This document shows positions 1,114 to 30,175 of a DNA stretch of 64,000 nucleotides, one piece after another (position 1 is the stretch's first letter; each line of letters opens with the position of its first letter). The notes under the pieces are model-generated. The model was not told the DNA's origin, ran no database searches, and saw only the letters and a list, made by a program, of their open reading frames with translations. The DNA is from Phoronis australis (Eukaryota; Animalia; Phoronida): contig NMRA01000054.1 in assembly GCA_002633005.1 (NCBI GenBank), positions 190,952 through 254,951 on the forward strand, given 5' to 3'. Made by a program: the position numbers and the translations under genes.

Positions 1114-2078
1114 AGAGGTCTCGCAAAGCGACACGAACGTGAATTACGACCATACGTAATTGCGGGTGCCGCTAGATAGAAATATATGTTGAATGTGAAA
1201 AAAGGCGTTTCTACGAACTCCTGCAAATTTGGTCAACTCTTGGAATGCGACATTTATTTGTAGTTTCAAATAAATAGATGCATGTAAATTAAGCATGTGA
1301 ACAAAATAACAACACAAAGCCATATCTGTTAAAAATCTGTTCTACTTCGATGATATTCAGCAAATCCCGGCAAAATAAGGATTTTGAAAAAAGTGTTGCC
1401 TCTCTTGTAACTAAACTTTAAGATCATTTATAAACAAAGGAATCGTGTTCATTCTACACTGAAGCAAGAAAAAAAGATTGAGAGCCTTATCAAAATAAAA
1501 ATCTTTTTGTTGTCTTACCAAATAAGAATTAAAAAGCGAGGTGAACGGAAATGATCACGCATTTATAATTCCGCGTCGTACAAGTCATTGTTGGCTGTTA
1601 ATTCTTAATTAATAAGACATCCAAATTATTTTTACTTTGACAGGGGACTCAACCTTTATTCTTTGCTTCAGTGTAAAACGAGCACGATTGTTTTGCCTAT
1701 AAATGTTTTTAAAGTTTATTCGCAAGAAAGCACCCTTTCCAAAATCCTTATTCTGCCGGGGTTCGCTAGATATCATCGAACTAGAATGAATTTTTAACAG
1801 ATATAATTTTGTGTCTGTTAATTTTTTACATGCTTGATTTACATCTTTTTTACGTAAAAGAAGTTGCATTGTCAGAGTGACTTTCAAGTTTTTTGTAACT
1901 ACTGTAAGCGGACATGTACCAGGCCTACAGTAACTGGACACAGTGAGCTCAGTCATTCAGTTCACGTTTAGTTTTACGCTCACGGAAACATTTAGCTTTA
2001 GCGTATTACCGTAACGTGAATCGACGCGCAATTAAGTATGCGCTATAATTCACGTTCACGTCACTTTGCGAAACCTCT
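1114..2078. mobile_element. Foldback (palindromic) non-autonomous DNA transposon / MITE
   Basis: About 50-bp imperfect TIRs (agaggtctcgcaaagcgacacgaacgtgaatta... / ...taattcacgttcacgtcactttgcgaaacctct). Internal arms ~1285-1530 and ~1598-1845 are also inverted copies of each other. Confidence 0.8.
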
Positions 2079-2205
2079 CTATTCATTATTGCGTTAAAAC
2101 TGGAAAATATTCTCAAATTTTCCGCAAAAGAGACTTGCATAAACAGACCTGATACCATCAAGAGGGGCGCGTGGACGTGACACGCAAGAATGTCGCAATC
2201 ACGCT

Positions 2206-2671
2206 ATGGAACAAAATGGTGGTAGCGATGATAGTGAAGATGAAATATCTTATGAAAGACAGTTGAAGGAACTTGACAGACTAGCCAAGGCAGCACAACA
2301 AGAAGTTAGGGCGATTATTCGAAGTACACCTTCGTTTTTGTTATCGAAAGCAGAGATTGAGACAATTCTTAAGTCCGGTCAAAACGAGGAAATAGAAAAG
2401 GAAATTCAGAAAAAACAACAGAAACAACAGCAATTACAACTGAAGCAGGTCCAACAACGTTTTGACAAGGAACATTTCTTTAACAGCAGTGTAACACTGA
2501 ATACAGCTTCAAAATCAAAAAGAACAGAAAGTCTTAACAGCAGAAGCTACCAGATCACGACAGACGTGAAAGGCACCAAACCTGCTGAACCAAAACCTAT
2601 TGGGAATTATACTAACCACATTGTGACTCAACCAAGCCAACCTAGTCAGGGAAAGTCTGGTCGTTTATCTG
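2206..2671 (+). CDS. Gene 1, putative first coding exon (acidic N-terminus, Q/K/E-rich coiled coil)
   Basis: ORF from ATG 2206 with protein-like composition. Strong donor G|GTGAGA at 2671/2672 (phase 1). Its junction to the next exon is unresolved (see findings). Confidence 0.6.
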
Positions 2672-3487
2672 GTGAGATGATAAACATACGAGATGGGTTG
2701 TGTCATTTTGTGACATTTTGACGGAACAGAAATTAATAAAACATGTTTCACATGAACTAGAAAAAATGAAATGTGCAAAGTAGCTTTGCAACAAGTACAA
2801 GTCGAGTCCCATTTACGTTGCTTAATTTGGCAACAATACAGAAGTTACTGTGTTGCGGTGGGGGAGGTAACTTGCCAGCTGATTTTCCAAACTGTAGGAA
2901 AACCATAGTCATTCCGAATTAAGTCCCTCAGGTTCACAAAATAGTTTTAAATTTTTTTCAGAACCATGACAGAAAAAATATTCTCAACCCGTAGCATACT
3001 TTCAAGGCTGTCGCCAAGTTAAGAACAGTGCCAAGATGCCGTCCACGGTTGACGAACCCTTCTAAAATGTAGCTGCTTCATAAACTCTGGTTGCCGATTC
3101 CTTGTGATGGCAGGAATTATTCGCCATCATGGAAGCGAAATTTCAACACCCATTTCTAGGACTAATTTTCCTATTTAATGATTGTTGTGTTCAAGCCTTG
3201 TGTCTCGTTTTACTTCAAAAGTGTACGCGATTCAAGGCACATGTCGCTACCTAAAGTAATGTACTTTTTCGTTTCATTAACTTGCATAAGCACGTACATC
3301 TTGTGTTTGCAGTTTTTACATTTTTGTATGTTTTATTAATGTTGAAAACACGTGAACATCTACCGTTTAGTAACGGATTAGTCTATCTTCACTTACGTTT
3401 TGGATATATACATGTAGTTTAAGCGTTTCGCATTTGTACATGTAGATGGTTAAATACGAGTTGGACGCGAGACATTTTCATTTTCAG

Positions 3488-3751
3488 GACGCTGATACCA
3501 AGGAGGAAGTTGATATGAAACGAAAGGCAAGCAAACCGAGTAAAATCTCAAACGGAGGGGCAAAAAACAACACGGGGAAGAGTGGAAGCGGCGAAACTCA
3601 GTCTTCATTAAGTGAGCATAGGTCAAGTAAGTCGGGTAGAAGTGGAACGGCAGAATCTACTTCAGTTAAGGACTTTGTGAGCGCAAACACTCCCCCGGAA
3701 AGGAGAACAACAGGAACTGCACAGGAGGGAGACAAAGTTCCGGTTGTACAG
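3488..3751 (+). CDS. Gene 1 exon (S/G/K-rich, disordered)
   Basis: Acceptor ttttcattttcag|GAC and donor CAG|GTACGT, both phase 0. Open frame DADTKEEV...KVPVVQ. Confidence 0.7.
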
Positions 3752-4375
3752 GTACGTTAAGGTACAGAATGTAGGTGTGTGCCAGTAAGTGCTCGTTAAT
3801 TCTTCAAATGACAATTAGGTAATGCAAACAACAGCTTGGATTGTTTTTCACCTGTGAAATTTACTGATGAGTAGAAGACTGTCGATAACAGACTTTTGAT
3901 TACGAAATTCATTTTACTATGAGAATTCTCTGTGTGAGGTTGCTTTCCAAAGAACATCATTTTTTTCTTTTGAAATTTTAGATCTTTCTTACACAAAAAC
4001 TGTTTGGTAGTCACGCGACATTCATAGTGAAAAAAATATTCTAAGTTCAATTTGAATGAAGTCTTCAGAATTAAAGATTGTGTTTTGGTCTTCAGTAGAG
4101 TCCAATTCATCGGTTGAGAAATAAAAAGTAACACCTTATACACAATTGCTTGGAAAATTAGGTCAATATAGGTTATAGTTTACATTTTTCTAAAGGGCAA
4201 CTTTTTTTCTTTCCGTCAAAAAACAACATTTTGCCATACACATACCACAATGGCTTTGAAGCAAAGAAAAAACAATGAACATTAAAAATTGCATAGTACA
4301 TGTGCAGTTTACGGTACTGTAAATAAAATTCACAATAAGGTAGCTATAGTAACCTCATTGAATTCTACTTTTCAG

Positions 4376-6670
4376 GTCAGGATAAGCGATAAAAGTGTTG
4401 CAATTGGAAGAAAGGTTACAGAAGACGCAGTAACACAGGCGCTTGCCCAAACACTCTCGGAGGACATAACTCAAAGAAGTCTAACACTTGTGAACGTTGA
4501 ACATTCGTCTCCACAAGCAACGAAGACCGCAAGCTCAAATTTTTTGCAACCTGCAGTGGAACAACCAGAAGAGGCCACAGAGTTGGAAACAGACGACAAA
4601 GACAAACAAACTGGTATCGTTGACAAAACGAAACTTGATGAATTTAACAGTGCAGATAATCTATTAGGCAAAAAAGGTGACAATATTGGTCAAATGGAAG
4701 ACGGTGAGGTTCAAAATCAAGAGGACGGGTTAGGCAAAACAGGTGATTACGGTGAACAAACGGTAAAAGGTGAAGTTGAAAATGAAGAAAATGTGTTAGC
4801 TGAAACTGATGACAATGCTGACCAAATAAAAGAAGATGGGGTCGAAAATGAAGACAACATGTTAGGTGATGTTGGTGATAACACTGGTCAAACAAACGAA
4901 GTTGAGGTTGAAAATACAGTCAAAACAAATGAAAACGTTGATCAAAGAAAAGAAGTTGATTTTGAAATTGTAGATAATGTGTTTGGCGAAACAGGTTATA
5001 ACCCCGACCAAACAAAAGAAGTTGAGGTTGAAAATGCAGATAATGTGTTGGACGAAACACATCAACAGACTACACATGAAACTGATTCGCTAGACAAAGC
5101 AACGAAATTTCAGCAAGATGAAGAAAAAATGAAAATTGTCCATAAATCACTAATAGTTAATGAAACAGATCAAGACAATCTAGATTTAGAAAGTGATCCT
5201 GGGAGGTATACCTCCGATAATGGTGGCAAAGGAGGGAGTTTAACATCAAGGGCATCCAAAAGGGGTAGTCTAGACAACTCAAGAAGGCAGTCGTCATTTA
5301 CCGGAGAAGTGTCTAAGCGAGACTCCACATACTCACGAAGGGAATCCGATGAGCTGGCTAAAACGTCTAGGAAGAAGGAAGAAACGTTCAAGCGCGTGAG
5401 TCCTCGCGACAAAAGAATGAGTGTTCAGGCGGAAAAACCCAGAAGATCTTTTGGTGGCGGCCGCAGATTATCCATGCCTATTGGAAAACAAGTGCGCCTT
5501 GGACAAAGTGGCGGAACCGAATCGGTTACACCAAGTGTAGTCGTAAACCATGCTTCGCAGGACGGTAATGCATTAGACGTTGTTCAGTTCAAATCCCGGT
5601 TGATTTCAACGCCTAGTTTAAAGGAAATTGCACACAGCACTAGCGATTTTGCTCACTCAGGTCCTGAGGGAGGGAAAAGTGAATTGTTTCAACGTGTACC
5701 TTCCAAAAAAGAGCTCGTGGCAGTTCGTGAAGACAAAAAGAATTCGTTTTTTATAACAGAAAACTACCACGATGGTGAATTAGAAAATTTAGAGGAACTA
5801 CCTGACATAGCAGAGTACAAACGCAAGCAGCGAGCTGCGCGCAAATTAAAATCAGCGCACTCTATGGACGAAGAGAGCAAACACAGTGTGGAAACAATAA
5901 CGGAAGATAAAGAGGAGAAAGAAACTGAAACTACAGAACACGTGCAGAAAGAAAATACGCCTTTGGAGAAAAAGATTTCTTTGGTAGATCGAGAAACGTC
6001 GACAGATGTCCTTTGTGCTCATACAACCACCCAGACAAGCATCACAAATAATCCGGGTGATAAACTGGAGGACAACGAATCTCCAAAGCATTCCAAAAAA
6101 CGAAAAGTTCGCAAGCCTCAGCCACACACATACTATACAACAAACCGGTTGCTAGGCAAGAAACCCAAGATAAAACATTTCAATGTGATTCAGCGTTGCA
6201 CTGCTGAAAACATTGTCGAAACGGTGGAAACGCGGCTGCAACTTCGCGAAGATGCGGATGAAGGCCAAGAGAGACCAAAGATTCCGTTGATATTGGATTC
6301 AGAAGCATTTTGGAGGGATGACGAATTGAATATTGTCGTGAAAGCGAAAGGTAATTACGGACTGCAGCCCCTCCCCACGTTACGAAATGATTATTTAACA
6401 CTTATGCCCTTTGCTATCAATATAACATTCATTCGACACGATTCGTTACCCAAGAGACGAACAAGAATTGCTCACCGAGAGTTATTGAAATCACGTACAA
6501 GAACGCACCCTTCCAAGTGGATGCGTAAATTTTCTCCCACCAGAAACGACGTAATCGATTCGCGAGCCCAAGGTCCGGAGTTTATAACCTCGTTTACCGG
6601 AAATAGGTCTCAAGAATTTCCTTCGTTGCCACGAGTCAAGGGAACTGCATCGCCGCCAAGTCCGAGGTGA
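4376..6670 (+). CDS. Gene 1 large terminal exon: disordered acidic/basic protein with a 22-aa repeat, an AKAP-like helix and a PKA-site cluster
   Basis: Acceptor aattctacttttcag|GTC in phase 0 matches the 3751 donor. 764 open codons run to TGA at 6668-6670. AATAAA at 6976. Confidence 0.8.
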   Translation, partial: VRISDKSVAIGRKVTEDAVTQALAQTLSEDITQRSLTLVNVEHSSPQATKTASSNFLQPAVEQPEEATELETDDKDKQTGIVDKTKLDEFNSADNLLGKKGDNIGQMEDGEVQNQEDGLGKTGDYGEQTVKGEVENEENVLAETDDNADQIKEDGVENEDNMLGDVGDNTGQTNEVEVENTVKTNENVDQRKEVDFEIVDNVFGETGYNPDQTKEVEVENADNVLDETHQQTTHETDSLDKATKFQQDEEKMKIVHKSLIVNETDQDNLDLESDPGRYTSDNGGKGGSLTSRASKRGSLDNSRRQSSFTGEVSKRDSTYSRRESDELAKTSRKKEETFKRVSPRDKRMSVQAEKPRRSFGGGRRLSMPIGKQVRLGQSGGTESVTPSVVVNHASQDGNALDVVQFKSRLISTPSLKEIAHSTSDFAHSGPEGGKSELFQRVPSKKELVAVREDKKNSFFITENYHDGELENLEELPDIAEYKRKQRAARKLKSAHSMDEESKHSVETITEDKEEKETETTEHVQKENTPLEKKISLVDRETSTDVLCAHTTTQTSITNNPGDKLEDNESPKHSKKRKVRKPQPHTYYTTNRLLGKKPKIKHFNVIQRCTAENIVETVETRLQLREDADEGQERPKIPLILDSEAFWRDDELNIVVKAKGNYGLQPLPTLRNDYLTLMPFAINITFIRHDSLPKRRTRIAHRELLKSRTRTHPSKWMRKFSPTRNDVIDSRAQGPEFITSFTGNRSQEFPSLPRVKGTASPPSPR
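4679..5062 (+). repeat. Coding tandem repeat, 66 nt / 22 aa, 6 units (one shortened to 54 nt)
   Basis: Units start at 4679, 4745, 4811, 4877, 4931 and 4997. Consensus is roughly DNxDQTKEVEVENEDNVLGETG. Confidence 0.9.
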
Positions 6671-7216
6671 AGCAGAACTGCCTATAAACATGCTTATACA
6701 TAAAAGTTTGAACGTGTTGGTTACAGTGCTGCAGTTAACCCCATTTGATGTGCCATCAGAAGAATGGCCTATGAATTATTTAGGTTGTCCTGTACACTTT
6801 TGGATGCCACCTAAAATAATTCCAAAAAGATAAAATGTCAGTGTATTGTGCTTTCAATAATTGTCTTATGTTTTCGACACAATACATGCTTGATTTAGCG
6901 CCAACCGACGTGATAAGATTTGGATCAAATGACAGAAAATCGTTGCCCAAAAAAAAACTTGTCCGTTGCTTCAAGAATAAACCAAGAAAAACGCTTTGAT
7001 AAGAGTTACACTCTCAATTATTTTTTTACCTAACGGTTTTATTTATGCTTACAATAGTATAAGTAAGAAACTAACATTGGTTTAAAACATATGTGCATCT
7101 TCGGTAATCATTCGCTTCAAAAAAATTCAATTAAATGGTTGAGATTTGTCCAAACTGATGCCGATAGGTCATGAATCTCTCATCTCTAGAAATTCGCGCA
7201 ATTGGGAAACAGTGAG

Positions 7217-7251
7217 TGACGTCATCTAGTCGAATTCAAACTAGATGACGT
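7217..7251. promoter_or_regulatory. CRE (TGACGTCA) overlapping a 12-bp inverted repeat, upstream of gene 2
   Basis: TGACGTCA at 7217-7224. acgtcatctagt (7219-7230) and actagatgacgt (7240-7251) are inverted, giving a second CRE half-site. Lies 60-90 bp before ATG 7310. Confidence 0.45.
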
Positions 7252-7309
7252 TATTCTTTTAATCGTTGCACTATTTTCGAAAAGGATATCGAGTCATAAG
7301 AAGTTTTGG

Positions 7310-8342
7310 ATGCAAATGTCAACGCTTTCAAGCTATGTGACACAACATTTATTAAGCAACAGCTTTTTTACGTCATTTCTGGAAAGTTTGCATCTTCTTG
7401 CAATACATGTTTGGTTATCTCTCTTTGACGTTGGAAAGTTTGCATACGGATGTTTACTTCAACCACTTCCTTTTATTTTTGGTGCCTGTGAACACAGTTT
7501 GTCGCTATTGCCGCAAGCACCAGGTTTAGCGTATCACGTAGTAACTGGATTAACATCGTATTCATTTGATTCAGTCACCAAAACCATGTCGTTCATATTA
7601 AACACTTTGCGTTATGCCTGGAACAATATGCGAGGTGTTGAAGACTCGGAGAATAACTACATCGTAGGATTTTCGAAGGAAGATAACTTATATGACATTA
7701 TCTGGCAAGTCCTATATTACCCCCTGTCAGGTGTTTTGTTTCTTTTTGAATCGCCAACTCAAGAAGAAGAAAGGGATTTAGTGAATTACTTGGACTTAAA
7801 CGTGATCTATCATTTTAGTCAACCGTTCAGAAATATTTGGACTCGATTCTTTGATGGTGGAAACTGCGACGAGCCGGAGAAATGTATAGATGTGTTCAGG
7901 CCTTTCGTTGAATCGTTCAGCCGTTTAAGTTCAATGGTACTAAATGCTACTTTATCGCCAAGCATGACCATCTCGGGGATGTACAACTCTATTGAAGGAA
8001 GTCTTCATTCAAAGAGTTTCTTCTCTGAAATGTTTGCCAGTCCAAACTCATTACAAACCATCTGCACCATTGGGTCCATACTATGTTTCTTTGTTGTCTT
8101 AGGCTTGACAAAGTCATATCTAAACAGACGTGATCAGTCCGGATATAAAAGCCAAGATACTCCGAGCACAGGATCCAATATCGTCTTGTTCATTGTTGGA
8201 ATAATGACCATTTTAATTCGCATGCCAATCTGGATGGTGAAATCTACTGACTATATAGAGTACTCCCACCAGTCGTTACAGCAAAGAATTATTGGAAAAT
8301 TGTTCTCACCAGTTATTTCAACATTCTATTTGATGGCGCAAG
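7310..8342 (+). CDS. Gene 2 exon 1: hydrophobic N-terminal region with predicted TM helices
   Basis: Long ORF with hydrophobic segments TICTIGSILCFFVVLGL and IVLFIVGIMTILIRMPIWMV. Donor CAAG|GTTTGT (phase 1) joins 8623 in frame. Confidence 0.75.
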
Positions 8343-8622
8343 GTTTGTTGCTTTTTAAAATAGATTCATCGACCATTGAGAAACTATTTAAACGGAAAAC
8401 ATGGACATAACGCTTAAAAGACTAAAATCAGTGTACGACATTTTTCAAAATATTGTTTTCGGTAATGGTGGGTTTTTGTTGTATTCAAAGGGAATCTCAA
8501 TAAAAGAATTAACTTACAACTAATTTCAAACAATCATCAGTAAAACAAGCCCACGCAAATGCATGAATAAAATAAATAAATAACTACTCTGATTCTAAAT
8601 AATATTTAATTTTGAATTATAG

Positions 8623-10376
8623 CATGGAATTTTTTTGGAAGGTGTATCAAAATGAGATCCAAAGACTCCAGTGTTTTTCACTTCACTCCATCAAGCTCAG
8701 AAAAAGCGCTGTTGCATCGCAGAAACCAGCATCTCCAGACTGAAGGTCCCTTTATGGACATCTTTGATAAGGATGACGACACCAGCATGGAATATACGGA
8801 CGATCTATCGCCGTTACAAAGTTACCCTAAACAGAACATAGCTAGAGCCAGAATAATACTCTCGAAGCATTCTTCACAAATAACTTCTGAAGCAGATGAC
8901 AACAGCAGATGTGAATTCTCAAACCAAACTGAGTTCATGAACGTATTTGGTAACAAAAATGAAGACGAGTTGACCAGCGAAGACTTGGTACCAGGGTGTG
9001 AAGACGTAGTGAAAGTCAAGAAAGATCTTAAAAATCATGGTAGCGTGTCTGAATCAATTTTTTCAAACAAAGCTACAGTCAAGTCAATGGTATGGGAACA
9101 AAAGTTCAATCGCCCTCTTCACGACACACTTGATAAGAATCACAAATCAGAAAATGCTGTATCTGATATCAGATTGAAATTAAATAGCTCGCAGATCCAA
9201 CCTTCAAACACTGGTCACCATATCACCACACACTTGGAAAAAACAGAGATGAATCCCGGCCTTTCTGTTCAGGAGGGGGCGTTGCAAAAACAGGACGATA
9301 ACGAACGGGCGCACATTGAGGGCGATGACGAAAGGACCGACAGCGAGAACGCAGTAACATACAAGAACATACCTACAAGACCACAAGAATATCAAATAAC
9401 AGACTTGTTCGCCAAAACGAGTAATGACCTTTTTCAAAGAATTCTCAAAGAAGCGAGAGTTCTGATGACGTCGCAAAATGCAAGACCGGAATCAGAAACA
9501 AACATGGAAACAACAAGCCTAGAAACCATTCAAAGGTTGGGTTCCAATGACTTATTTATGAAAACGGTGATCAAAGAAGCAGCAAGACTTATGTCAAACG
9601 AACGTATGGAGAATGATGTAAGCTGCACTACAGAAAAAAGTTCGCCTACACTTGAGTCCAAGCAGCAAAACATTAATTTCAATGCACATGCTTTACCAAG
9701 AGATGGAAGTGATGGTCCAGGAGATGAGATGACGAAGACGTTACAAGGACAAGAAAACAATGACGAGGTCAAGCAGCTAGGGAATTCTTTTATACAAAGA
9801 ATAACCAAAGTAGCTAAAACTTTAATGGCTCCTAACAAATTAAATGACGACGAAAGAGAGGCAGAGGCGCTTCAAGCAGATCAAACCGCTAGAAGTATTA
9901 GCTACAGTGATATATTTGTTCATAGAGTCTTGAACGAGGCCATAAATCGTCTAACCGAAGAATTGGTTCAAAATCCAGATGTCAATGGCCAAGTTAATAG
10001 TCAAAGTTCCCCAGAAATTAAAGATAATGGTGTTGTCGACATCGTTCTTATTGGAAAGACTACAGAAACGATCAAAACAAAGAGGACAGATGCAAGTGAC
10101 TGTAACAAGGCAAAGAATGAAGGGGACTTGGTAAAGGCTATTGGATTACATAGTATTCAAGAAAATTCCGACAAACCGCCTGAAGAAATGTGTGAAAAGG
10201 CATTCCCTGACGAAGATGAGCGGCTGCAAGTTGTTAGCATCTGTAAGGAAGACATGGTTTCAACTGATACCTATAACGGGCATGCCAAGAATGGCCAAGG
10301 AAAGTGTACTAAGCTCTCGATAGAATATGAGAACTTGTGTGATCTTTATATCATCAGATCTGCTGATAAACTAACG
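8623..10376 (+). CDS. Gene 2 exon 2: disordered region with 4 AKAP-like helices and the start of the RanBD-like domain
   Basis: Acceptor tttgaattatag|CA (phase 1) gives ...MAQ-A-WNFFGRCIKMRSKD. The frame stays open to donor ACG|GTAAGT (phase 0). Confidence 0.8.
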
Positions 10377-10989
10377 GTAAGTTAGAAACATGCATTTTAT
10401 AATACTCACTTAGAGTATCAGAGTATTTTTTCATTGATGTCCCATCATATGTCAAAACCTTGTGATCCATAGCAGTAGCCGTCGACAAAAAGAATGGTTG
10501 CAGGCAGTGTTATGTTGCCGTGGTGCATTACGTTCCATTGTTACAGATGCATGACGACTACGAGTTTCCATGACGATACTAAAAGCATTGCTTATATTCA
10601 AGATGAAAAGGGACATTCACGATTGAACACATGCTCTCCTTAGCATTGATGAGTGTTTGATTCGAGAGTCGGTCTGAACGTTTACCGGGCACATGCCATG
10701 AATTAATAGTTTGATTTTGGTGATATTTAACTTGTTTGTTTGTAATACCAGTTGTTATTGGCATCTCGTATCTCGTACATGTAGGTTGCGAACACCTTTT
10801 GGGACATTATTGGGGACAAATAAAACAACAAGAATAATATATATTTTAAGTTGTATTGGGAATTTCAAGGTCACAGCCCTACAAATAAATATTTCACAGA
10901 AGGAACCAGATAGGCTCCTTAATTACAACAGATAACACACACATTTCCGATACCCAAAGTGTAATTGAATATCGGATACTAAGTGGCAC

Positions 10990-11280
10990 AGGTTAGCATA
11001 GTACCAAATGGGTACATATTACCAAATGGGTATTGGCCGATTGCCTACCAACTGGGTGGAGCAAAACTGCAAAATCAATAACGAGTACCAAGTGGGTACA
11101 AACTGCCAAATGGGCAAATATCATATAAAGTACCAAGTGGGTACACCAAACAGCCAACTGGGCTATAACAACCTGCAAAGCATGTTCCGGACAAGCTGAG
11201 TGAGCAGACCAGCCGGAGTGATAAAAAGAGATATTGCAAGGAACGTGGTGGTGTTGTGGCTCGGTATGTGCCGAGAGCTG
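10990..11280 (+). mobile_element. Interspersed repeat with an array of CCAANTGGG mini-hairpins (copy A, in gene 2 intron 2)
   Basis: Seven CCAANTGGG units followed by gctgagtgagcagacc. Homologous to an inverted copy at ~36120-36470. Boundaries are approximate. Confidence 0.65.
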
Positions 11281-12200
11281 TGACCGGGACAGAGAGAAGC
11301 AAGCCGCAGTAATGGATGCTCGAGTACAGGTCGGGTCGCTAGCCAATAACGTCGGTTCTTGCCTGACGGCAACACGCTCCGGGCTTGAGGTACCAGCAGT
11401 GACTGTAAAAACAACAATAACCAACAGCAGATTTTGTTCGACAAAAGGGAGGGAGCGTGGGAAAGGTATAAATCGGTTGACTTGAGATTTTGTGGTACCC
11501 AGGGTAGGGAGGGTGGGAAAGGTATAAAATTGTTTAATTAGGAAAACTTACGAGTGAATGTACTGTTGCTTGAGGCTGGGCCAACATGAAGCTGGAGAGA
11601 AAGACAAACAGCGCTACCATCGGACTTGATAGGAACTAACTTGGAGTTGGATATGAAGCATGAAGGACTGTATAATTGTATTTGCCCAAATAATAGGATT
11701 TATGTCAGAGTGCCATAAATCTCATTATTTAGTGAGGTATCTTTAAACGATTGTTCATAGCTCCCACACGTATTTGAGACTCTCGAAAACTCAACCTGAT
11801 CAAAATGTAGAAGGGGTTCTCGAGGCTTTCAAAAAGGTGCTTGATATCTTTCTTTCAAAAGTTGAAAAAGAGGTTGCAAAATTGTTTTCTATCGGAACGG
11901 AAAATGTTCTGTCAACTTTATTGTCTCATTTAATCTTGTTGATGAAGGTAACAAAACACATAATTAACACTCCTCACTTGTTCAATACGTCAGAATGGAC
12001 TGTGCGGATTAAGTTTTAAATGTGGCTATGCTTTGTGATGGTGTGTGGGTGGAGAAAGAGTAATTAAAGTCATCGATGATTTTCTAGTGAGACTACAATA
12101 CTTGAATGCAACCTTTCATAAACAAAGTTTGTTTTTCTGTTGTTTAGCGTTGGTTTGCCTGTGTATCTAGTTGCCCATCTTTAGAAGTCTTTTTTTTCAG

Positions 12201-12331
12201 CACAAAGGTTCAGGAAAAATTAAGATCGTCTATTGCCCAACGTGCAACGAGTGTTGTCTGCTCATGAACGACGCTACTACCAATAAGAAATTAATTCGCC
12301 ACGCCGTTCCTTCAACATTCGAACTTTTTAC
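12201..12331 (+). CDS. Gene 2 exon 3 (RanBD/PH-like domain, middle)
   Basis: Acceptor tttttttcag|CAC (phase 0), donor AC|GTAAGA (phase 2). Encodes HKGSGKIKIVYCPTCNECCLLMNDATTNKKLIRHAVPSTFELF. Confidence 0.8.
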
Positions 12332-12976
12332 GTAAGAAGTTTTAATGACTGCTCTGTATACATTTCCAATTTTATTCTAAATATCTTAATCAAAGCTGCC
12401 GGCGGTCGTGCATTATGGAAACGTGTCTGTTTCATTCCACATCTATATTAAAGTCCCCCTGCTTTTAAGTCCGGCACACAAATCATCGGCAAGATAAGGA
12501 CCACGGCGTCGAATATTCGGCATTATTGCGCAAAAGAGTGTCGATTAATTACACCTCAGGAATGTCCAAACTGCACAAGCACCAACTGTAGCTATCTGTA
12601 AGTGAAATACTCACCTGATGATTTAAACGACCTCAGCGACAACAGAATGAAAATGTTTGCTCTATATTTTTTCAAAAGGTTTTGTAAACCATTCGTTACC
12701 TAAATTCATCATGCTAAACTGGTTACATACAGTACACGTTCAGAAAAGGCAACTGCTGCCTTAAACATTGGTGCCGTCTCAAACGTTGGAGGCCGTTCAG
12801 TAGAGCTGGTATCATACGAGTGTGCTGAGGCCACGAATTTTTAGGCTGGTCTTCGCCATCCCTTCCAAGTGGGTCGGAGTGTAACTAAACGAATTCCATG
12901 TTGGTTTTCTCTACTGCTCTTCGACAATTACCGACTCGTGCGTTATTTTACGCTGGGAATGTACTTCGTGTTTTAG

Positions 12977-13109
12977 AAAACCGGAAACGTTCATGGTTCA
13001 TTGGACTTCTATGGACTACTGCAATAGGTCGAAACCGAGAAGAAAACATTTTGCCATAGAGTTTAGCTGTTTGACGGACATGAACGACTTTTGTGCGGAG
13101 GTTGCTAAG
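12977..13109 (+). CDS. Gene 2 exon 4 (RanBD/PH-like domain, C-terminal part)
   Basis: Acceptor cttcgtgttttag|A (phase 2), donor AAG|GTAAAA (phase 0). Encodes KPETFMVHWTSMDYCNRSKPRRKHFAIEFSCLTDMNDFCAEVAK. Confidence 0.8.
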
Positions 13110-13278
13110 GTAAAAGTTTAAAATTTAAATAGTTTTTGCTGTCGGCGTCATTACTATTATCCAACAAAACAGGCCTTGCCACCTAGTTAGTGGCATATTT
13201 TGTTAGCGCCAAAAGCTTTGAAAGATACGTTGTGGATTTTTATATTGCCCTCAGTTGACCGAAAGTGAATTGTTGTAA

Positions 13279-13942
13279 AGCCCTGTCACATGAGTTGTAC
13301 GAAGGGTATACGGTATGACAATGAGTTGCACAACCGTCATACGACATTGTAGTATGGTACGATGCTAAAGGCTATCGTAGGACGTCATCTCATCGTTTTG
13401 CACGACACTTTCTAATTTCTTAGTCCGTCGTGCCATGTTCTGAGTCATTTAAAATCCCAAAATTGATAGGAATGTTGTGTGTTGGACTTACAGTAAAGTT
13501 AGGCATACGACAGTCGTACAAGCGTTTCACTAGCTTACGCCTATCCTGCGACTGTCTTACGATAATGTTATGATTAAAAATTGCACGGGTGTAGGAAATG
13601 TGCTGCTATTCTGGCTCTCTTGTCTATATGGACCTTGATAAAACGCTTTGAATAATAGTTGTGGTCGAAGCTCTTGAAATTACAGCAAAACGCGAAATCA
13701 TTTTGGCAGTCATCATTAGAGCTCAAAAGCTGAGGTAGAAAGCGACAAAGCTGGTGGGTAAAGCGGCAAATCATATGATAAGGTTACGATTGTTGTGCAA
13801 CAGGAAATGACGATCGCACGACATCGTTCTTCATTCCAGCAGTTGCAAAAGACTACCCTGACTGACGAAAAAACCGTTGCACGATTTGCCTTCCAAAATT
13901 TCATGGTGTACAGTCGCACAACCGTCGTTCGGCATATGTGAC
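13279..13942. mobile_element. Decayed non-autonomous DNA transposon, possibly PIF/Harbinger-like
   Basis: Left end taa|agccctgtcacat and right ...atgtgac give only a 7-bp inverted match. The interior is rich in cgta/acga/tcgt motifs. Confidence 0.3.
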
Positions 13943-14090
13943 TACAGATATGCTAGTAAATACGACGAAATTACGGCAGTCCCCTCATTTTCTCGTTAGC
14001 ATCGCATGGCTGTCAGGCACTAATTAGTTATAATCAAAACCAGGCCACTTACCTCTGCATAATTGGTCACAATAATGCATCGCTACTCTC

Positions 14091-14428
14091 TAAAGCTATA
14101 TTTCGCATTATTTAGCAGGCTTAAACCGAAAATCGAATTAGGCTTTTACTCTTAGTAATTCGAATTTTTAATATTCTTTACTTTGAAAGAGTTCTATTTC
14201 CGTTATCAACAAGACAAAGACCATTGGCACAAAATAACGATTTAGATTTTATTAGGGTTAAAATTTCTAATTCGAAAATGGTGCATGTAGCCATTGCCTG
14301 TGACTTGACTTGGTATCGGAAATGGAATTCTTTCTCAGTAAGGAATATTATGAGACCGTTTTTATGAGAGTAAAGGTCTAATTTTGTTTTCGTATTTAGC
14401 TAGCTAAAGAGGCCAAAATTTAGCTTTA
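14091..14428. mobile_element. ~340-bp palindromic MITE with (C/T)TAA|AG...CT|TTAA ends (Kolobok-like)
   Basis: 14111-14213 is an imperfect inverted copy of 14310-14408. Termini are taaagcta / tagcttta. Confidence 0.65.
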
Positions 14429-15484
14429 AAGCGTCTCTCTGTGTTTCAGTTTTTAACACAAGTTGTTTGTCCCTTCTTGCCTGTGACAGCGTTCCCAGGA
14501 GCTGTTTCTGATCTTTAGTCAAAAGCCAGTCTACGGATTGCATAGCACGTTTCACAAAATCGGGCTAAGTCTAAAGGTTAGAAAATCTGCCAACAACTCG
14601 AAGCTAAAATGCTGAAATCCGTAGCCTGCTAAGGAGAAGACTAAAAGGCTGAGCCAAAAGCCCAAAAACGTTTAGGTATTTGTAATCAATTATCTGACTT
14701 TTACTAAAGTAGACTATTCGAAAAACAGAAAGCAGGACTATTTTCATCGTTATTTTTGGCTTTATCAGCGCACTGGAGCCAGGTTTGGAGAACGAAAGCG
14801 GAAGACGACACTGTTCTTATGCCGAAGGTTTTCCGCACACCTTTCTATCGAGCACAATTTTGCAATAGTATCTCATTTTTATATTAAGCCTTCAATAGCG
14901 TCGCGGCTTTCACCAGTCCAATTTTCTCTCCGAAAGTGTCATAGTTGACCGGCCGAGCAAAATACCAGAAGAGTCAGAATCTCAATACGTAAAGTCAGCG
15001 ACACATATACGACTCAGGTGCACCGATGGAAGCCATTCATAGCCGGGTTCCAGGCGCAATGACAGAGAATTGGCTCGAGGATCCCTTAGGGGAATTACCT
15101 ACACAAGTTTACAAACAAAAGTCAAAAGCGACAATCAAATTGTTACACTGATGGCACAATACGAAGATTTTCTAATAGACAGGGACAGTTAAGACGGGCA
15201 GTGAATTATTGTTGTGTCAACTTCCCGTACCGCTTACGAAATCATAAAAATACGTACTTCAGGGTCCCCTGTAATACTTTATTTTTTGTTGCCATAAAAA
15301 ACATCAACAAAGTATCGGAGCTTTCCAGCTTTTGCAAAATGTTCCACGTTTTTATCATATCGAATTTTATTTCTTAATTAGTTTTCTTCATTTCGCGTTA
15401 GTTAGTGGTAAGGAATCGCAAATTTAATTTGAAAATCAATGACTCAATAAAAGTGTTTTCAATCTTATCTAATAATTATTTCAG

Positions 15485-15554
15485 AGCAAACTCCAAGTTT
15501 CTCAAGTTAGGAGACCAGTTAGCACAGAAAGCCTTAGGACGAAATTTGACATGG
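15485..15554 (+). CDS. Gene 2 exon 5
   Basis: Acceptor ttatttcag|AGC (phase 0), donor ATGG|GTAAGG (phase 1). Encodes SKLQVSQVRRPVSTESLRTKFDM. Confidence 0.7.
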
Positions 15555-15830
15555 GTAAGGAAAAACTAATCCGTACCAGATCTCCATTATTACAGTTAAC
15601 GGTAAAACAGGATAGGTAAACCAAGGCTAATTCGTACCTTTTAACTGACTAGACGTTTACGGAAAAGGTGCAATTAATCAATTGTATAAATTAGTCAACA
15701 TAATTAAGCAAATGCGTGATCGGGTACGGATTAGCCTTTTTCACTATCCATGCATTATTATTGGTATACCTACAAAGGTGTAATGTCTATTTGATCTGCT
15801 GTCGTTTTACTCTTATTTGTTCCCTTAAAG

Positions 15831-15896
15831 TACAAAGTGAAGGTGGCCATTCCAGTCCAAATCTGTCCGAAACCCAAGCAGCAGAGGAATCAATAA
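15831..15896 (+). CDS. Gene 2 exon 6
   Basis: Acceptor ttatttgttcccttaaag|TA (phase 1), donor ATAA|GTAAGT (phase 1). Encodes VQSEGGHSSPNLSETQAAEESI. Confidence 0.7.
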   Translation, partial: YKVKVAIPVQICPKPKQQRNQ

Positions 15897-17470
15897 GTAA
15901 GTGATGTTACTGCACTCGCGTATAATCACATGTACCGTCGGGAAATTAATATTCATGTCTGATTATTCATGTTGCCTTTTAACTTTTAATTAAGTGAGTG
16001 TTTATTAACTACAATTATTTGAATCCATTTTAATGAAGACTCATTAGTAACCTGACTACGTAAAATATCAGAATGTGGATCTATTCAGGAGTTGTAACCA
16101 GAAACTGTCGTGTTAATTACTTTATCATGCTCGTTGTCATTTCTGGGAATCTCCTGGTCATAAAACAATGATTTTAGATCTTCCGTCAGTCCTCGAATGC
16201 CGTTGTGTCAACCGATGACGTGTACATTTGAGTACGCAAAAACTAACAGCAGTTTTTCGCATTCTAGCGTCTTCCCTCTACACAGCAGCGACGTGATTAG
16301 TTGATACGTGAATAGTCGTACAAGGGCCGTTCGACGCACTAGGCAGTTCGTTGTTAGTTGCTCGTGCAGTACTCGCATAGCGCTAATCTGTCAGACAAAT
16401 GGCGTTTCTAAAAAAGTAACAAACATTATCTTAAGGGATGGTAATACGGTGGTCAATTACTATATTTGTGATCACGACATACCCCTGTCCATTAACCAGG
16501 GCGAAGACTTTACGCGTGCGCCGCAACTCGCTCCACGCACATTGCGTTTGCACTAAACGGGGACAGCTACATTAAATGCATAGATTTTGATGCATTGCGT
16601 ACAATCTTGAATGTGTTGTCTTCAAGCAGATGAAATAAAATCTGGTGATCAGGGTTTAGCCTACTGATCTCTGCACAAACGTTTGTTCATTATCAAGAGT
16701 GATCTTTGGATCTTCAAAAAATATGTTCACTGTCAATCATAAGAGAATGACACGGATAAACAGAAACAGTACAGAACTCAGATAAAATAAAATTAAAAAG
16801 ACAACACTTATATACAAAAAGTGCCTAATTTACCCTTAGATGGTTCCACTCGAGGCAAAACTTGCTGACTGTGCTGTCTAAATACACTTAAAATAGGCAC
16901 TTTTACTTTACTTTTAAAAGGGGATGAAGCCTGCGCAAAGATTTTTCTGATCAAATTTATTCTGACTTTTAAATGCAAAGATACTAATTCTACGGGATGC
17001 GAAGCTCTCTTTCTCTAAGTCCTCCTCTCTCATGGGGGATTATGTGTGTCAATTGCAGTTTTTTATGTTGAAAGTCCCAGGAAGGAGAATGATCCTAAAC
17101 ACAGCCCCTGCATTAATTTATACCTTGCTACGGGCTTGGCATCTGATTCACCATATCCTCAAATCGAAGAGTTGTCCGTCAGTTGCAAAACTTTTGCTTA
17201 ACCTATTGGAAATCTCTCCACTGTACCCTCAAATGTAAATCTTAACATGCACATCTAAAAATGCGGAAAACAAGAAACACGCGGACCGGGCACACAGGGA
17301 TAGAATCGGAATTGATGTCCAACTTTGACCCACACAATAGCGGGCTTAAAGGAAGGATTTGCATTGGCTTCACATGTTTCACGCCACCAACTCGCACACT
17401 TGTGTACACAAGGCTCGCACATCAAACTCAGTAGTCGAGATATTTCGCTCTATGATACGTGTGATTTCAG

Positions 17471-19995
17471 AGACAATAAATAGGATGGGAAGCACCATAG
17501 ATGGACCAGAGGCAAACAGTCAGACGCTTCATAGTATCAATGATTACAAACCGGTCAAACAAAATCTAAGTTCTCTCACTCCTCACCGTCTGCAACAGAA
17601 CAGCGAGGTAGTAACAAATAGCGACGATATTTTGGATGTGCAAATAAAGATTAATACTCCGGGAAAATTATTTACAAGGCATATTACACAGAAACTCATC
17701 AAAGACCGTCTTAACGAAATAGTACCTCGAGAATGCTTGGACTTCTTTGGATTAAAAGACGTTTATCTCGTTGATCATCAGCCCCAAGGTACCAGCAATT
17801 ATACTTCGAAGGTGACACCGACCAAGTCCAGCGTAGGAATACAGCACAACGACTCCTTGCGCAAATTACAAGAAAAAGGAACGGGGATGCAAGCCAAAGT
17901 AACCTCAGATGCTCTCACAAACACAACACCGTATAACACTCGCTGTCTGATGTTCGATGTTGCGACCAGTATTTCAGTAAAAGGAAATACTACCAATACT
18001 TGCACGATTACTGATTTGTGTAAAATGCAAGACGCTGCCACTAGTGTATCTCTCAATAACCATCGTGATGTGAACACCAGTACATTGCCATTTAAAGTTT
18101 TATCATATTCTTGCGGAACGCTCACCGATCACGTTACCATCTTGAATCATACTGACGAAGACAGTCGTTCCATTTCTGGTCAAACAGCACAGCCCATAGT
18201 TCAAGCAGGGGATCCTTTCAGACATTTGGAAAACAATACTGGAGAACAACTCGATTCAAATTGTTCAAAGCATCCCTCTGACTCTGTCACAATCACTCCC
18301 TTATCAAGGATCGGGACATATAGAGAGGAAAATATGAAAAATCCAACCAGTCCAACAGTTTTCGAAAAATTAGGTCATCTTATAAGCGAGCACAGGCAGC
18401 AAGTGAATAAAAGTAACGAGTCTCTCTTAGGCAAACGGTATTCGGTCGTTTATGTTGACGAAAAAGAGAAATCAGTTGTCGAACTAGCTGTTATTGAAAC
18501 TGATCAGCCCATAACTTTCAGTCAGGAGCTTGAACAAAGAATTAAAAAAATGGATCTGGCTCCCCCTGTTGTCACATCAAGGACTTATCAATCCTCTTCA
18601 CTTTGTCGTTCTCCTGAAACTGGCTCTTGCTTAAATAAATTCAATGTAAATGACGCCTATGAACCTGTTTTCAATGGTGGGAACAGTTCTGCAAGATCTG
18701 TTGATAACGACGGCAATAATACTACGACCATGCCATCCTCAATTATGTCGCCTATACAGCACATTAACAGAGAAGAACATAAAACGACTCCTTCCCAAAA
18801 AGCATATGCTTTCAATGAAAATACTGGCCGTGTGATATCGAAACAGAAGAACCGTGTAATTTCTGGAGAAGCAGTTGTCAACACGGAATCACGTTTGACA
18901 AAAAAAGAAAAGCAACGACGTGATTCTGAACTTGCATCCAGTTACTTTGTTGCCCCAGAATTGGAAGATCCCATTACAAGTGAATTGTCAATGACGAACA
19001 AGGCAGTCGCTGGCTCTTGCAAGCTTTCAGACAGTTTATCATTCCGTTCTCGATCAAATATAGAACGCAATTCACCAGAACAAGATTTCGGTTGTTCAAA
19101 AGAAGAACAACATACAACAACAGCGTCTGCTGGAGATACCAGTCACGTTTCTTCTAGCAAACGCAAAACACTTTTGAAATTGAAAAACTCTCGTATCTTA
19201 AAATTTTTTAGCGCGTTTGCTGTAACCGTGAAGAGTAAATGTTTGCGCCCACAAGTCAAAGAATTCCAGGATGTAGTATCTCAACGAATACGACAAGAAA
19301 AGAACATGTCCGAAGATCAAACCCAAAGTCTGGCTACTTCCAATGCCACCAAAAACATAAGTGGCGCTTGGAAAAACGAAGCTGTGAAGAAATTCGAAGA
19401 AAACGTGTCTGGAAATATGATATCGGGTGACAGGACGTCTTCTGTCGTGACTCAGTGCTCTGAAAGCGTTGGTAAAGGATCGCTAGACCAGCTAAATGTG
19501 CGAGATAACGCAGTGAAGCGAAAAAGCGCATCGTCTCCAAGTGCTCATAATCATTATACAACGAAGTCCAGTGTGAAAATGCACAAAGATCAAAAAGAGA
19601 AAGTGAAAGGAGAACGTAAACTTTCTGATCCCAATGCTGCATTTGGTACAAATCGTCATAAATTGCGCAAGTCTGGTCCAAAGTCCTATCCTAACCGTCA
19701 CCAAAGAGATAGTTCTGGCATGCCTAACCATACGCGTGGGTCCCTTGTAATGGATGAGAAATTCAAAAATCTGGTTCGTGAAAACTCAAAAAAAGCTGCG
19801 AAGATCAAATCTAGTGATCGTCATAAGATGTCCAAAACTGAATATGATAAACTTAAAGATGTCTTTGAAGGTACAAAGATACCCGCGCCTATTGTAGGTA
19901 CACACAGAAAAGACAAGACGCCTGTTAAAGATCATTTGACAAGCGTCAACGCCGAGAACAAAATGCGCGTACCTTCCATACCAGAGGTGAAATGA
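17471..19995 (+). CDS. Gene 2 terminal exon: long S/T/K-rich disordered region
   Basis: Acceptor gtgtgatttcag|AG (phase 1) is in frame with the 878-aa ORF. Stop TGA at 19993-19995. AATAAA at 20318 and 20405. Confidence 0.8.
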
Positions 19996-21599
19996 AATGG
20001 CATATTTCTATGCGGCATAGAAAATTTTAAGAAATTGAACAAGCAGTTGATAATATTTCACTTTGATCGAAGTGTTTTGTAATTAAAATCAGTATTGAGG
20101 AACCATTTGTTTATCTATACCAAGGTAGGATCGAATTCATGCTGTGACACTGAATGTTCATTACAACGGACAAGTGTTTAAAAACACAAAATTAATTCAT
20201 GAAATGCTGTTGAATTTATGAAATAGAATTGAATTTAAAACTAATAGATTTGATTTTGAGTAATTTTTTTCCGCTACCCATAATCTTGTTCCATAAAAGT
20301 TCTTTTGAAGTAAAAGCAATAAAAATAGAGTTATCATTACCAGATTGCTAAACAAAACAGGAAATAAGATTATTCGACAAAGTTATCTGCAGTCGAAAAT
20401 CACCAATAAAGTTCTGGATTAACCTGATACAAGGCCAATAAAAAGATATAACCGGTGAATTGTCTCAATAGTCTAAATCCCATAATCTGTGACTTATCCA
20501 GAATCTTCATTTTCTGTCATTACAAGATTAATGAGGTGCTTTGTTCTTGCTCCAACTTTGTTATCAGTTTATCTTCTTCTACAGACATAAAGTTTGATTT
20601 CAAAACAACAAGTTCGTAAGATCTCCCAAAAAGATTTGCAATTGTCTCCACGATTATGAGAATTGCGAAATGGCAATCAACATATTGTGTATTTTGTTAA
20701 ACTTAATAGCAAACATTGTTTTTATTCCTCACTTTTGACCTATTACTAAAGGTGATGGTGTAAAATATGGCAACAAACGGTGAGTTGAGCATTTATTTCA
20801 AAACCGAAAAGATTGTTTGTGCTTGAGCTGTAACGTTTTGAGGACTTCGCTAATTAGATACTACACTTATCTTCAAATATTTAAAGTACCGTGATTTACT
20901 TACTGAAACTATTTTATTTTAAACTCCTTGGTGCGTAAAGAAATATCCGGGCGTTTATAGTCACGTGACTATGTTTTTTTAATTTAAAGATCTGTTTCAT
21001 TAAAAGATAATGCCTTGAAGTGGAAATGACGTCGAGAAAAATAGATTTTCTGATAATAGACTCATCGCGCATTCGAACCAGGTACATTCGCGTTCCCAGC
21101 CATAAGATCTGCTGAGGCACAAACTCGCACTATACATGTATATATGACAAAATTCTGTTAGTAGATTTAAGCGGTAAAGTTACCGGTCTTGGTTTTAGCG
21201 AAAGTATGCTAAACAACTGCGAGAATTGGCGATTTGTACTAAAGCTCAACGGATTTTGTGGCTTAAGTATCAGTCCACGGATCCACCGACCACAGTACAG
21301 CCAACAAGCGGCAAGGTGGGGGGTCAACCATTCAGATCCATGTTTAGTCTGATAAATCACGTTAGGGATGAGAGAAAATGAGTGAAGTATGACACTACAA
21401 AGTTTGGTGGTTTAGGAGATACAAGGGAAGTGTTCTGGGGGGCAAAATGAGGCAATTTCTTGGTGTGGAATGAGTCATTTTTTACCAAATTTTCTATTCC
21501 AGTTTCTGCTCCAAACAGAATCGTTTCTGAACAATTTTGATATCACATGATAGGTTCGTGACCAATGTCAGTAAAAACGGCACCGACACTGCAATATCG

Positions 21600-24009: not shown

Positions 24010-25475
24010 CAATGCATCGCCTGTAAAAGCGTTAAAACCGTGAAATTCAAATTTGTAGCAAGCGCCACCTAGTGACTTCCTGCAAAACTGTGTGTACAAG
24101 TATAATCAGGAAAGAAACAATTTGTAAATAAATTGCTGTTTTAAGGAAAGCCTCCCAACTGATACACGTACACACATGTGTTAACATATAAAAACCTTAG
24201 TAATATTATTCCAAATGTTACTCAATCGTGATTTGCCGGAAAGGTGAAATCAACAAATAATAAAAGCACTCTCTGAAAGGTTGTCTTTTGTGGTCTGGAA
24301 AAACCAGCCTCGTCCCCAAGCCTCAAGTAGAAGCCTTCATGCGTAAGATGGTGGTAATCGGTTTAGTCGTTTAAGGCTTGGTTATGAGAAATGAAATGTG
24401 CAATTTTTACAGAAATGAAGAAATATCACGAGTGATATAAAGTTTTATCAACTTTGAAATTTTCTGCAGTATGATATAAAAATGAAAACTAACTGCATAG
24501 TGCAGCAATTTAGGTCTAAATTATTGCGAAAACGGTGTATTTTGATTCGAAAACAAATTACTTTCTATAATACTATTAACAAAAAATTGAAAATTAGTAC
24601 GCCAACAACCGTTATTTCAAATAATAACAAAAGTAATGCCTTCTGCTTTATGAATGGCAGCAACTACGCCAGTGAAAATAATTAAAATCTGTCTTTGTTT
24701 TAATGATGTCAAGGCAGCGGCCAATCATCGCGGAGAAGGTAATTCCCATAACCAAGCCTCAAATGCCTAAACCGATCAGCGTCATCTTGAGGCTTGGCGA
24801 CGAGGCTGTGAAACAACAGGCCATGCTGTGGAAAGTGTCATAATTTTTCACATGGAATTAGCCTACTCTGTAAATAGGTAGGTATCTTAATTTTCCTATA
24901 CCATTCCACATTCAAAAAGATACCGTTAGTAAAATGTCTCTACAGTCAAGTCCCTGCAAGATCTTAGTGTGTGCAGAAACTGAAAGCCACCGACAACTGA
25001 GGTGCAAGGCTTCTTGGTCGACACTCCTCAGGGTGACCACAACGAAAGCATTCGTTCTGAATTTTCATTTGCCGTTATTTTGGGAAATGTTCAGCATCGT
25101 GCCATTTTGCGTCTCTTGTAATGCAAATTCTAGGTAATTACAGACACTTTTTGTCCACATTTCTTTTGACGACACAGGAATTCCTGGGAAACCCCCACAG
25201 TTTTGTCGTTTCCGGCCTAGTGAAACAAGGCACAAATTTATCATTTGTTTATTTCATTATGAAATAACGATTGTGTAAGTTGTGGAATTTCTAGTTTTTT
25301 TATGGGTTCACACTTGTTTTTAAGTGTATCTGTTGTGGTGCTTTCTTTTAAATCGCAATTTATTTTCATGTTTCTTTTATTGATTATACTTGTACACACA
25401 GTTCTGCAGGAAGTCACTAGGTGACGCTGGCTAAAAATTTGAATTTTCACGGTTTTTATGAGACATTGCATGTTA
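24010..25475. mobile_element. Old TIR element with ~230-bp inverted arms (Kolobok-like family), carrying a nested MITE
   Basis: ~24030-24262 is the inverted copy of ~25243-25475. A third arm copy at 44381-44606 ends in ...gcatct|ttaa. Confidence 0.6.
24305..24808. mobile_element. 504-bp MITE with a degenerate 9-bp TSD (possibly AcademH-like)
   Basis: TIRs cagcctcgtccccaagcctcaag / cttgaggcttggcgacgaggctg, extended by further subterminal inverted similarity. Flanks tggaaaaac / tgaaacaac match at 7 of 9. Confidence 0.75.
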
Positions 25476-30157: not shown

Positions 30158-30175
30158 GTGACAGATGTTTAAACT

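Follow-up and report, generated by a model that had tools for sequence, protein, structure and literature searches.

In Ran-binding domains (RanBDs), the WKER motif forms salt bridges to switch I, the effector loop of Ran, and a W-to-R change in this motif abolishes Ran binding (PMC3045386, PMC3718338). The AKAP helix carries its hydrophobic face at positions 2/5/6/9/10/13/14/17; multi-site AKAPs are known (AKAP220, SKIP), and few AKAP families have been traced outside vertebrates (PMC12083921). Helices of this type also bind SPA17, ROPN1 and DPY30-type docking-and-dimerisation (D/D) proteins, and some have been misassigned as anchors of protein kinase A (PKA) (PMC12203939). Among LC8 clients, DVATS is listed as the non-canonical core of PAK1 (PMC3789673), a site missed by LC8Pred (PMC12057147), and KANK1 binds LC8 via many weak, non-TQT sites of the TST, TNT and VNT kind (bioRxiv 10.1101/2025.07.16.665182, preprint). 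These and later citations refer to excerpts of the sources. A gene whose parts resemble these systems was analysed in a window of 64,000 nucleotides (nt) from Phoronis australis (GenBank assembly GCA_002633005.1, contig NMRA01000054.1, positions 190,952 to 254,951, forward strand), and all coordinates below are those of the window.

The gene, at 7310..19995 on the plus strand, is a real, spliced, orphan animal gene. Its predicted product of 1903 amino acids (aa) contains, on profile evidence, a RanBD homologue in which the Ran-contact motif is replaced. Predicted transmembrane (TM) segments and four duplicated amphipathic helices precede this domain, and a cluster of LC8-like motifs follows it in one splice form. 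A lineage-specific, membrane-anchored docking scaffold of the AKAP/D-D-partner type is likely the best reading of this arrangement.

Gene structure and transcripts

The original prediction had joined three separate-looking open reading frames (ORFs), given as 366, 577 and 878 aa, and four small exons into one gene; stop to stop, the latter two ORFs measure 589 and 881. Recomputing the join reproduced 5712 nt in seven segments, encoding 1903 aa plus stop with no internal stop codon, and GT-AG at all six introns. The segments were as follows.

7310..8342, plus strand: coding part of exon 1 (aa 1-344); N-terminal region, hydrophobic and for the most part helical, with a possible alternative start at ATG 7586 (M93)
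8623..10376, plus strand: exon 2 (aa 345-929); polar, low-complexity linker carrying the helix repeats, its end likely the first RanBD strand
12201..12331, plus strand: exon 3; N-terminal half of the divergent RanBD core, with LTHK at the WKER position, at the exon 2/3 junction
12977..13109, plus strand: exon 4; C-terminal half of the divergent RanBD, with a donor that pairs with acceptors 15485 and 15831
15485..15554, plus strand: exon 5; 70-nt cassette exon whose skipping shifts the frame
15831..15896, plus strand: exon 6; used in two reading frames, of which that of the long form is open and that of the 1038-aa form gives 21 residues, then TAA as the last codon
17471..19995, plus strand: exon 7; in the long form an 840-aa tail that is polar, rich in Ser/Thr and basic at its end, in the short form 3' untranslated region (UTR)

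RNA data comprised three raw-read runs of one study (X1, X2 and X3) and one contig run (X4), all labelled with the species. Approximately 18-19% of each raw run was read, and reads were mapped to window positions 1900-21500. Each of the six junctions was seen in stranded reads of both X1 and X2 (X1/X2 counts: 8342>8623, 8/4; 10376>12201, 14/11; 12331>12977, 22/16; 13109>15485, 6/13; 15554>15831, 10/17; 15896>17471, 12/9). The first mate lay on the minus strand in every junction read, which corresponds to plus-strand RNA in most stranded libraries. Depth over the three large exons was approximately 7-22. Finer read mapping gave zero depth within intron 1 at 8421-8521; a stand-alone 366-aa ORF is therefore unsupported. 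Because reads were at most 151 nt long, we infer the single molecule that carries all six junctions. Finer mapping at the 5' side of the gene gave no additional upstream exon and no loose read ends. Two start codons are candidates: ATG 7310, in a weak context, and ATG 7586 (M93), whose context is stronger.

In run X3, junction reads were absent and every exon bin of this gene and its upstream neighbour had zero depth; the run does carry intronic-repeat reads, with the same variants as X1 and X2. In the contig run X4, no junction of the seven-exon gene was seen. Expression is likely tissue-restricted, on an on/on/off pattern in X1/X2/X3 recorded without a housekeeping control. Reads of X1 and X2 carried variants at 7712 (aa 135, Leu to Val) and 8756 (aa 389, Met to Ile), and small pile-ups of 5 molecules apiece were present at 9966, 18582 and 20044.

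A second junction, 13109>15831, which was absent from the original prediction, skipped exon 5 in 11 reads of X1 and 4 of X2. Skipping was thus seen in 15 reads and inclusion in 19 (X1 6, X2 13; Fisher p=0.037). Skipping shifts the frame, so that translation would stop at the last codon of exon 6 (TAA) and yield a 1038-aa protein with the RanBD intact (26.3 bits) and the 840-aa tail lost. Under the 50-55-nt rule, a stop at the last junction escapes junction-triggered decay, and the 1038-aa form would escape it because its stop sits there; a long 3' UTR could nevertheless destabilise this form. The read ratio, the escape from decay and the weak context of ATG 7310 would all suit a gene that makes little or none of the 1903-aa product and works through the 1038-aa form or one started at M93. 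That explanation is highly improbable: in exon 7, an open frame of 840 codons continues the inclusion form in phase, and the LC8-like cluster falls within that frame. Under the favoured scaffold model, exon 5 skipping would yield a shorter form without the LC8-like tail.

A RanBD homologue with a replaced Ran-contact motif

A degenerate-motif scan of metagenome contigs yielded 139 RanBD loci, 70 of them with an open 130-aa frame. The remaining 69, with introns, truncation or stops, were left out, and 52 non-redundant domains were used to build a profile hidden Markov model (HMM); 12 of 12 members checked were PF00638. The profile matched the full protein at aa 930-1023 with 20.1 bits (E 2.3e-8 for a single target). 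The excised domain scored 27.4 bits, compared with 9.2 for the best of 1000 shuffles, which confirms the homology of the RanBD-like domain originally proposed. Exons 3 and 4 ranked 1 and 2 among 1223 six-frame stretches of the window, and splicing is therefore supported independently of the reads. As judged by these scores, exons 3 and 4 encode a real RanBD homologue; the Pfam PF00638 model itself gave no match on the separate exon pieces.

At aa 930-1023, a stretch that spans the exon 3/4 junction, the domain shares the profile of the RanBP1/RanBP2 RanBD (PF00638), the alignment needing a single gap and a single insertion. Unlike RanBP1 and RanBP2, it has LTHK aligned with WKER, all four residues being replaced, lacks the N-terminal extension and is fused behind TM segments. 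The end of exon 2, at the place of the Ran-wrapping extension, scored -1.8 bits, was left unaligned by the HMM and has lost three conserved Glu columns. Of the columns conserved at 80% or more, 10 of 27 are kept here as against 20-27 in family members, whose count is inflated by their selection on the WKER motif. Intron positions in the other RanBD loci were uninformative, the search pattern excluding an intron inside WKER. By this alignment, the domain is a RanBD descendant that lacks the Ran-contact motif and should not be classed as a working Ran-binding domain. Ran-GTP binding is predicted to be lost, and the PH-like fold is probably kept; the domain could then serve as a Ran-independent protein-binding module.

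Loss of WKER weakens a Ran-based link to the nuclear envelope. RanBD ancestry would suit a nuclear-envelope or pore-side derivative of RanBP1/RanBP2 with weak residual Ran binding, comparable to that of RanBP3, and a role in tuning nuclear transport in the germ line. RanBP3 functions with a weakened motif, fast-evolving testis duplicates of nuclear transport genes occur in Drosophila (PMC8645118), and PMC3925691 cites BS-63, a nucleoporin specific to testis. However, the weak-binding RanBP3 has retained W, E and R of the motif, whereas here all four residues are replaced and the conserved columns are reduced to the 10 noted above. The N-terminal extension cannot be recognised, and the 139 RanBD loci gave no match to any other part of RanBP2. 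The Drosophila duplicates are mostly retrogenes and were not found in other insects (PMC8645118), whereas the domain here is split by introns. Such a transport role is improbable, and the Ran-independent module of a docking scaffold is preferred.

Membrane segments, helix repeats and the LC8-like cluster

The N-terminal region contained one pair of segments that was conspicuous on two hydrophobicity scales.

8057..8224, plus strand: two strong predicted TM segments, aa 250-268 and 287-305, with Kyte-Doolittle peaks of about 2.2 and 2.3

The N-terminal TM helices of the original prediction hold for these two segments; the other three candidates (aa 23-41, 127-148 and 329-349; Kyte-Doolittle peaks 1.2-1.4) are marginal. 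The two strong peaks are also a candidate AKAP-type targeting region. They would hold the protein in an organelle or the plasma membrane with the C-terminal part presumably cytosolic, an orientation with which basic residues after TM1 and after aa 349 are compatible. Exon 1 gave no Pfam match above cut-off and no usable match in the ESM Atlas, and its single-sequence fold was unusable (predicted local distance difference test, pLDDT, 40).

Exon 2 carries an internal duplication with four helices.

9417..9953, plus strand: four amphipathic helices, H1 (aa 610-626), H2 (652-668), H3 (730-746) and H4 (772-788), in a 120-aa duplication

The helices form two copies of a gapless 120-aa (360-nt) unit, with the pair in each copy spaced 42 aa apart. 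At offset 120, the protein scored 58 against itself (-57+/-19 expected), and at offset 360 the DNA matched at 115/256 positions (71+/-7). When each helix was scored against the other three (leave-one-out), it ranked 1 of 1835 windows; BLAST self-comparison failed to detect the repeats. By eye, identities between the copies are concentrated on the helices and not on the linker, which suggests selection. AKAPs are characterised by an amphipathic helix of 14-18 residues with a conserved hydrophobic face. Fit to the published AKAP face (PMC12083921) was 7/8 for H1 and H2, 6/8 for H3 and 8/8 for H4. At least three helices at 7/8 or better were obtained in 1/1000 shuffles of aa 361-910 and in 18/1000 of aa 361-1903. 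The four AKAP-like helices first noticed by inspection are therefore confirmed as mutual repeats that fit the AKAP register at 6-8/8, their binding being predicted. H4 begins Tyr-Ser, with an aromatic first residue, and H1-H3 lack an aromatic in register. A consensus for the PKA regulatory subunit type RII gave 2 matches (0.8 expected), which is not significant. A single-sequence fold of aa 595-800 was helical at H1-H4, at low confidence (pLDDT 39).

The protein resembles dAKAP1/AKAP1, AKAP220, SKIP and D/D-interacting proteins in its hydrophobic helix face, in multiple sites on a disordered chain and in a candidate membrane-targeting region. It differs from them in having no detected sequence homology, in four sites derived from an internal 120-aa duplication and in the presence of the RanBD-like domain. 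Motif scans for a putative PKA regulatory-subunit or LC8 partner returned 0, 0 and 1 loci, and the single locus, from a Clostridia genome, appears to be a chance match. A D/D-domain dimer would dock on each of the four helices, with a PKA regulatory subunit or a relative as the most likely partner and H4 as the best candidate site.

Non-kinase D/D proteins of the ROPN1, SPA17 or DPY30 type could instead be docked, which would make the protein a structural flagellar or sperm tether and not a cyclic AMP (cAMP) hub. AKAP-type helices bind such proteins and have in some cases been wrongly assigned to PKA (PMC12203939), PKA sites of the [RK][RK]x[ST] type are not in excess in the 1903-aa protein (5, with 5.3 in shuffles), and an LC8-type tail suits an architectural role. 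On the other side, H4 matches the PKA-AKAP register at 8/8, and the two kinds of partner are indistinguishable from sequence alone. This explanation overlaps the favoured general D/D docking, from which it differs by denying PKA, and in that exclusive form it is decidedly unlikely.

In exon 7, anchors of the form [TVI]-[QNS]-[TVI] are clustered.

17908..18084, plus strand: aa 1209-1267, clustered non-canonical anchors of LC8-like type, of which four have Asp at -4 and one is DVATS as in PAK1

Seven anchors lie in aa 1200-1290 (5/5000 local shuffles), a best 90-aa window with 7 was reached in 7/3000 shuffles, and four anchors with Asp at -4 inside 60 aa were obtained in 0/5000. Clustered T-x-T/I/V anchors, Asp at -4 and a disordered region are shared with KANK1 L2, ASCIZ, Nup159 and PAK1; TST, TNT and VNT anchors are common to the protein and KANK1, and DVATS is identical to the PAK1 core. 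Unlike these multivalent clients, the protein has no TQT and its anchors are confined to the long splice form. Their spacing is longer and less regular than the 3-4-residue linkers described for KANK1. The LC8-like array originally proposed therefore survives as a cluster beyond chance, but a non-canonical one; it is a fair lead rather than a result. It might bind LC8 weakly and cooperatively and thereby dimerise the long form.

Homologues were searched for by several routes. No homologue was found among 6610 candidates for exon 2 (proteins of 1023-2920 aa), 1277 for exon 1 (603-2000 aa) or 7977 for the first 420 aa of exon 7 (1471-4200 aa), these length-filtered searches being weak negatives with near-length proteins outside their scope. 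The sole match of exon 2 among 1.84 billion representatives was a Limosilactobacillus mucin-binding protein, which was rejected as a repeat-summed score (27 bits per repeat). Pfam gave nothing above cut-off on nine exon pieces. Against PDB sequences, exon 3 gave weak matches to ribosomal S26 (E 0.1 or worse) and exon 4 none; exon 3 had no usable match in the ESM Atlas. No description of this domain combination appeared in literature listings. The combination of parts appears new, as first suspected, and each part has precedent.

An alternative is that the gene encodes a fast-evolving orphan membrane protein whose helices bind a membrane surface, a cytoskeletal partner or each other, the AKAP and LC8 likeness being incidental. 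Amphipathic helices are widespread, sequence searches revealed no link to an AKAP (Pfam on exon pieces; exon 2 against the 1.84 billion representatives), canonical TQT is lacking, and looser helix thresholds are near chance. However, the repeat, register and motif-cluster statistics all exceed shuffles, which argues for selection on these elements, with no partner named by it. Incidental likeness is a doubtful account, yet the most substantial of the alternatives.

The favoured model is a membrane-anchored scaffold in which up to four helices would dock D/D dimers, a Ran-blind PH-like domain would receive another partner and the long form would be dimerised by LC8. It is held tentatively, its likelihood falling a little short of even. 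Its weakest step is the cell type, which would be the male germ line or another flagellated cell. Of the cAMP hub at an organelle or the nuclear envelope in the original prediction, the two strong TM segments, AKAP-register helices, RanBD ancestry, LC8-like cluster and lack of a homologue in the searches stand; the cAMP role is putative.

Several observations weigh against the model. For the helices, shuffles matched the observed count in 50 and 63 of 1000 at the looser cut (6/8), the scoring was a pattern match built by the authors, H1-H3 carry bulky or polar residues at some face positions, and the type I FA/YA motif (positions 1-2) is in register on none of H1-H4. Both fold models are of low confidence (pLDDT 40 and 39), and the 1903-aa protein shows no PKA-site enrichment. 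For the tail, LC8-like anchors over the whole protein are not enriched (14, with 12.7 expected), TQT is absent from all 1903 aa, the anchor pattern was picked after the sequence had been viewed, and LC8 binders strongly favour Gln at position 0 (PMC6607443). No orthologue that could serve a cross-species comparison was found in the searches above, and the absence from X3 was recorded without a housekeeping-gene control.

If the helices dock PKA, the protein would be an independently originated anchoring protein outside vertebrates. If the model is true, the gene would further show cleanly how a RanBD can become a Ran-independent module and how splicing can switch LC8-driven dimerisation on and off. 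Animal genomes encode many orphan, low-complexity, tissue-restricted proteins whose domains have decayed, which lowers the significance.

Upstream gene and surroundings

A second gene lies upstream at 2206-6670 (plus strand), with the same on/on/off pattern as the seven-exon gene. Its main junction, 2671>3488 (139 and 60 reads), ends a 157-aa ORF at 3493-3495; an 843-aa ORF starts 19 nt later, at 3515. The transcript is a candidate two-ORF mRNA or may carry a long upstream ORF. If the minor first exon that ends at 3068 (4 reads) is used, the mRNA would contain the 843-aa ORF alone. This ORF (3515-6670, plus strand) has 14 [RK][RK]x[ST] sites (3.5 expected; 0/2000 shuffles), one canonical TQT (aa 631), one AKAP-like helix (aa 89-106, 6/8) and five 22-aa acidic repeats (4605-5039), and gave no Pfam match. 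Its PKA-site content would fit a setting rich in PKA, perhaps that of sperm. At 3561, an A-run is one A longer in 18/133 and 10/60 reads; the insertion would shift the 843-aa frame and may be an allele, slippage or an artefact.

Between the 3' end of the upstream gene (6841) and ATG 7310, depth over 6906-7410 was continuous at 1-9 and never zero. Read-through into the seven-exon gene may occur; no splice junction connecting the two genes was seen in the RNA reads. The most elaborate form of the favoured scaffold would be an invertebrate germ-cell cAMP module, in which a Ran-stripped RanBD and four PKA-anchoring helices are membrane-tethered, the 70-nt exon toggles an LC8-stiffened 840-aa tail, and the PKA-site-rich neighbour is co-expressed from the candidate two-ORF mRNA. 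As a whole, this composite is unlikely.

Intron 2 contains a high-copy repeat at 10800-11730, which reads of diverged copies, antisense to the gene, cover approximately 500-fold and in which a read joint leads back 918 nt; it is likely a tandem or LTR-like (long terminal repeat) element expressed elsewhere. Of 200 open stretches beyond 20 kb, the 150 longest were searched, and all that matched were transposon domains, apart from two weak matches below threshold. Remnants of a Gypsy-type retrotransposon (reverse transcriptase, RNase H, integrase), a THAP domain and a LINE-type reverse transcriptase were present at 28934-31113 (minus strand), 32712-33044 (plus) and 51347-51823 (plus). Nested long inverted repeats at 1111-2081, directly before the start of the upstream gene, and at 24043-25446 are likely non-autonomous DNA transposons.

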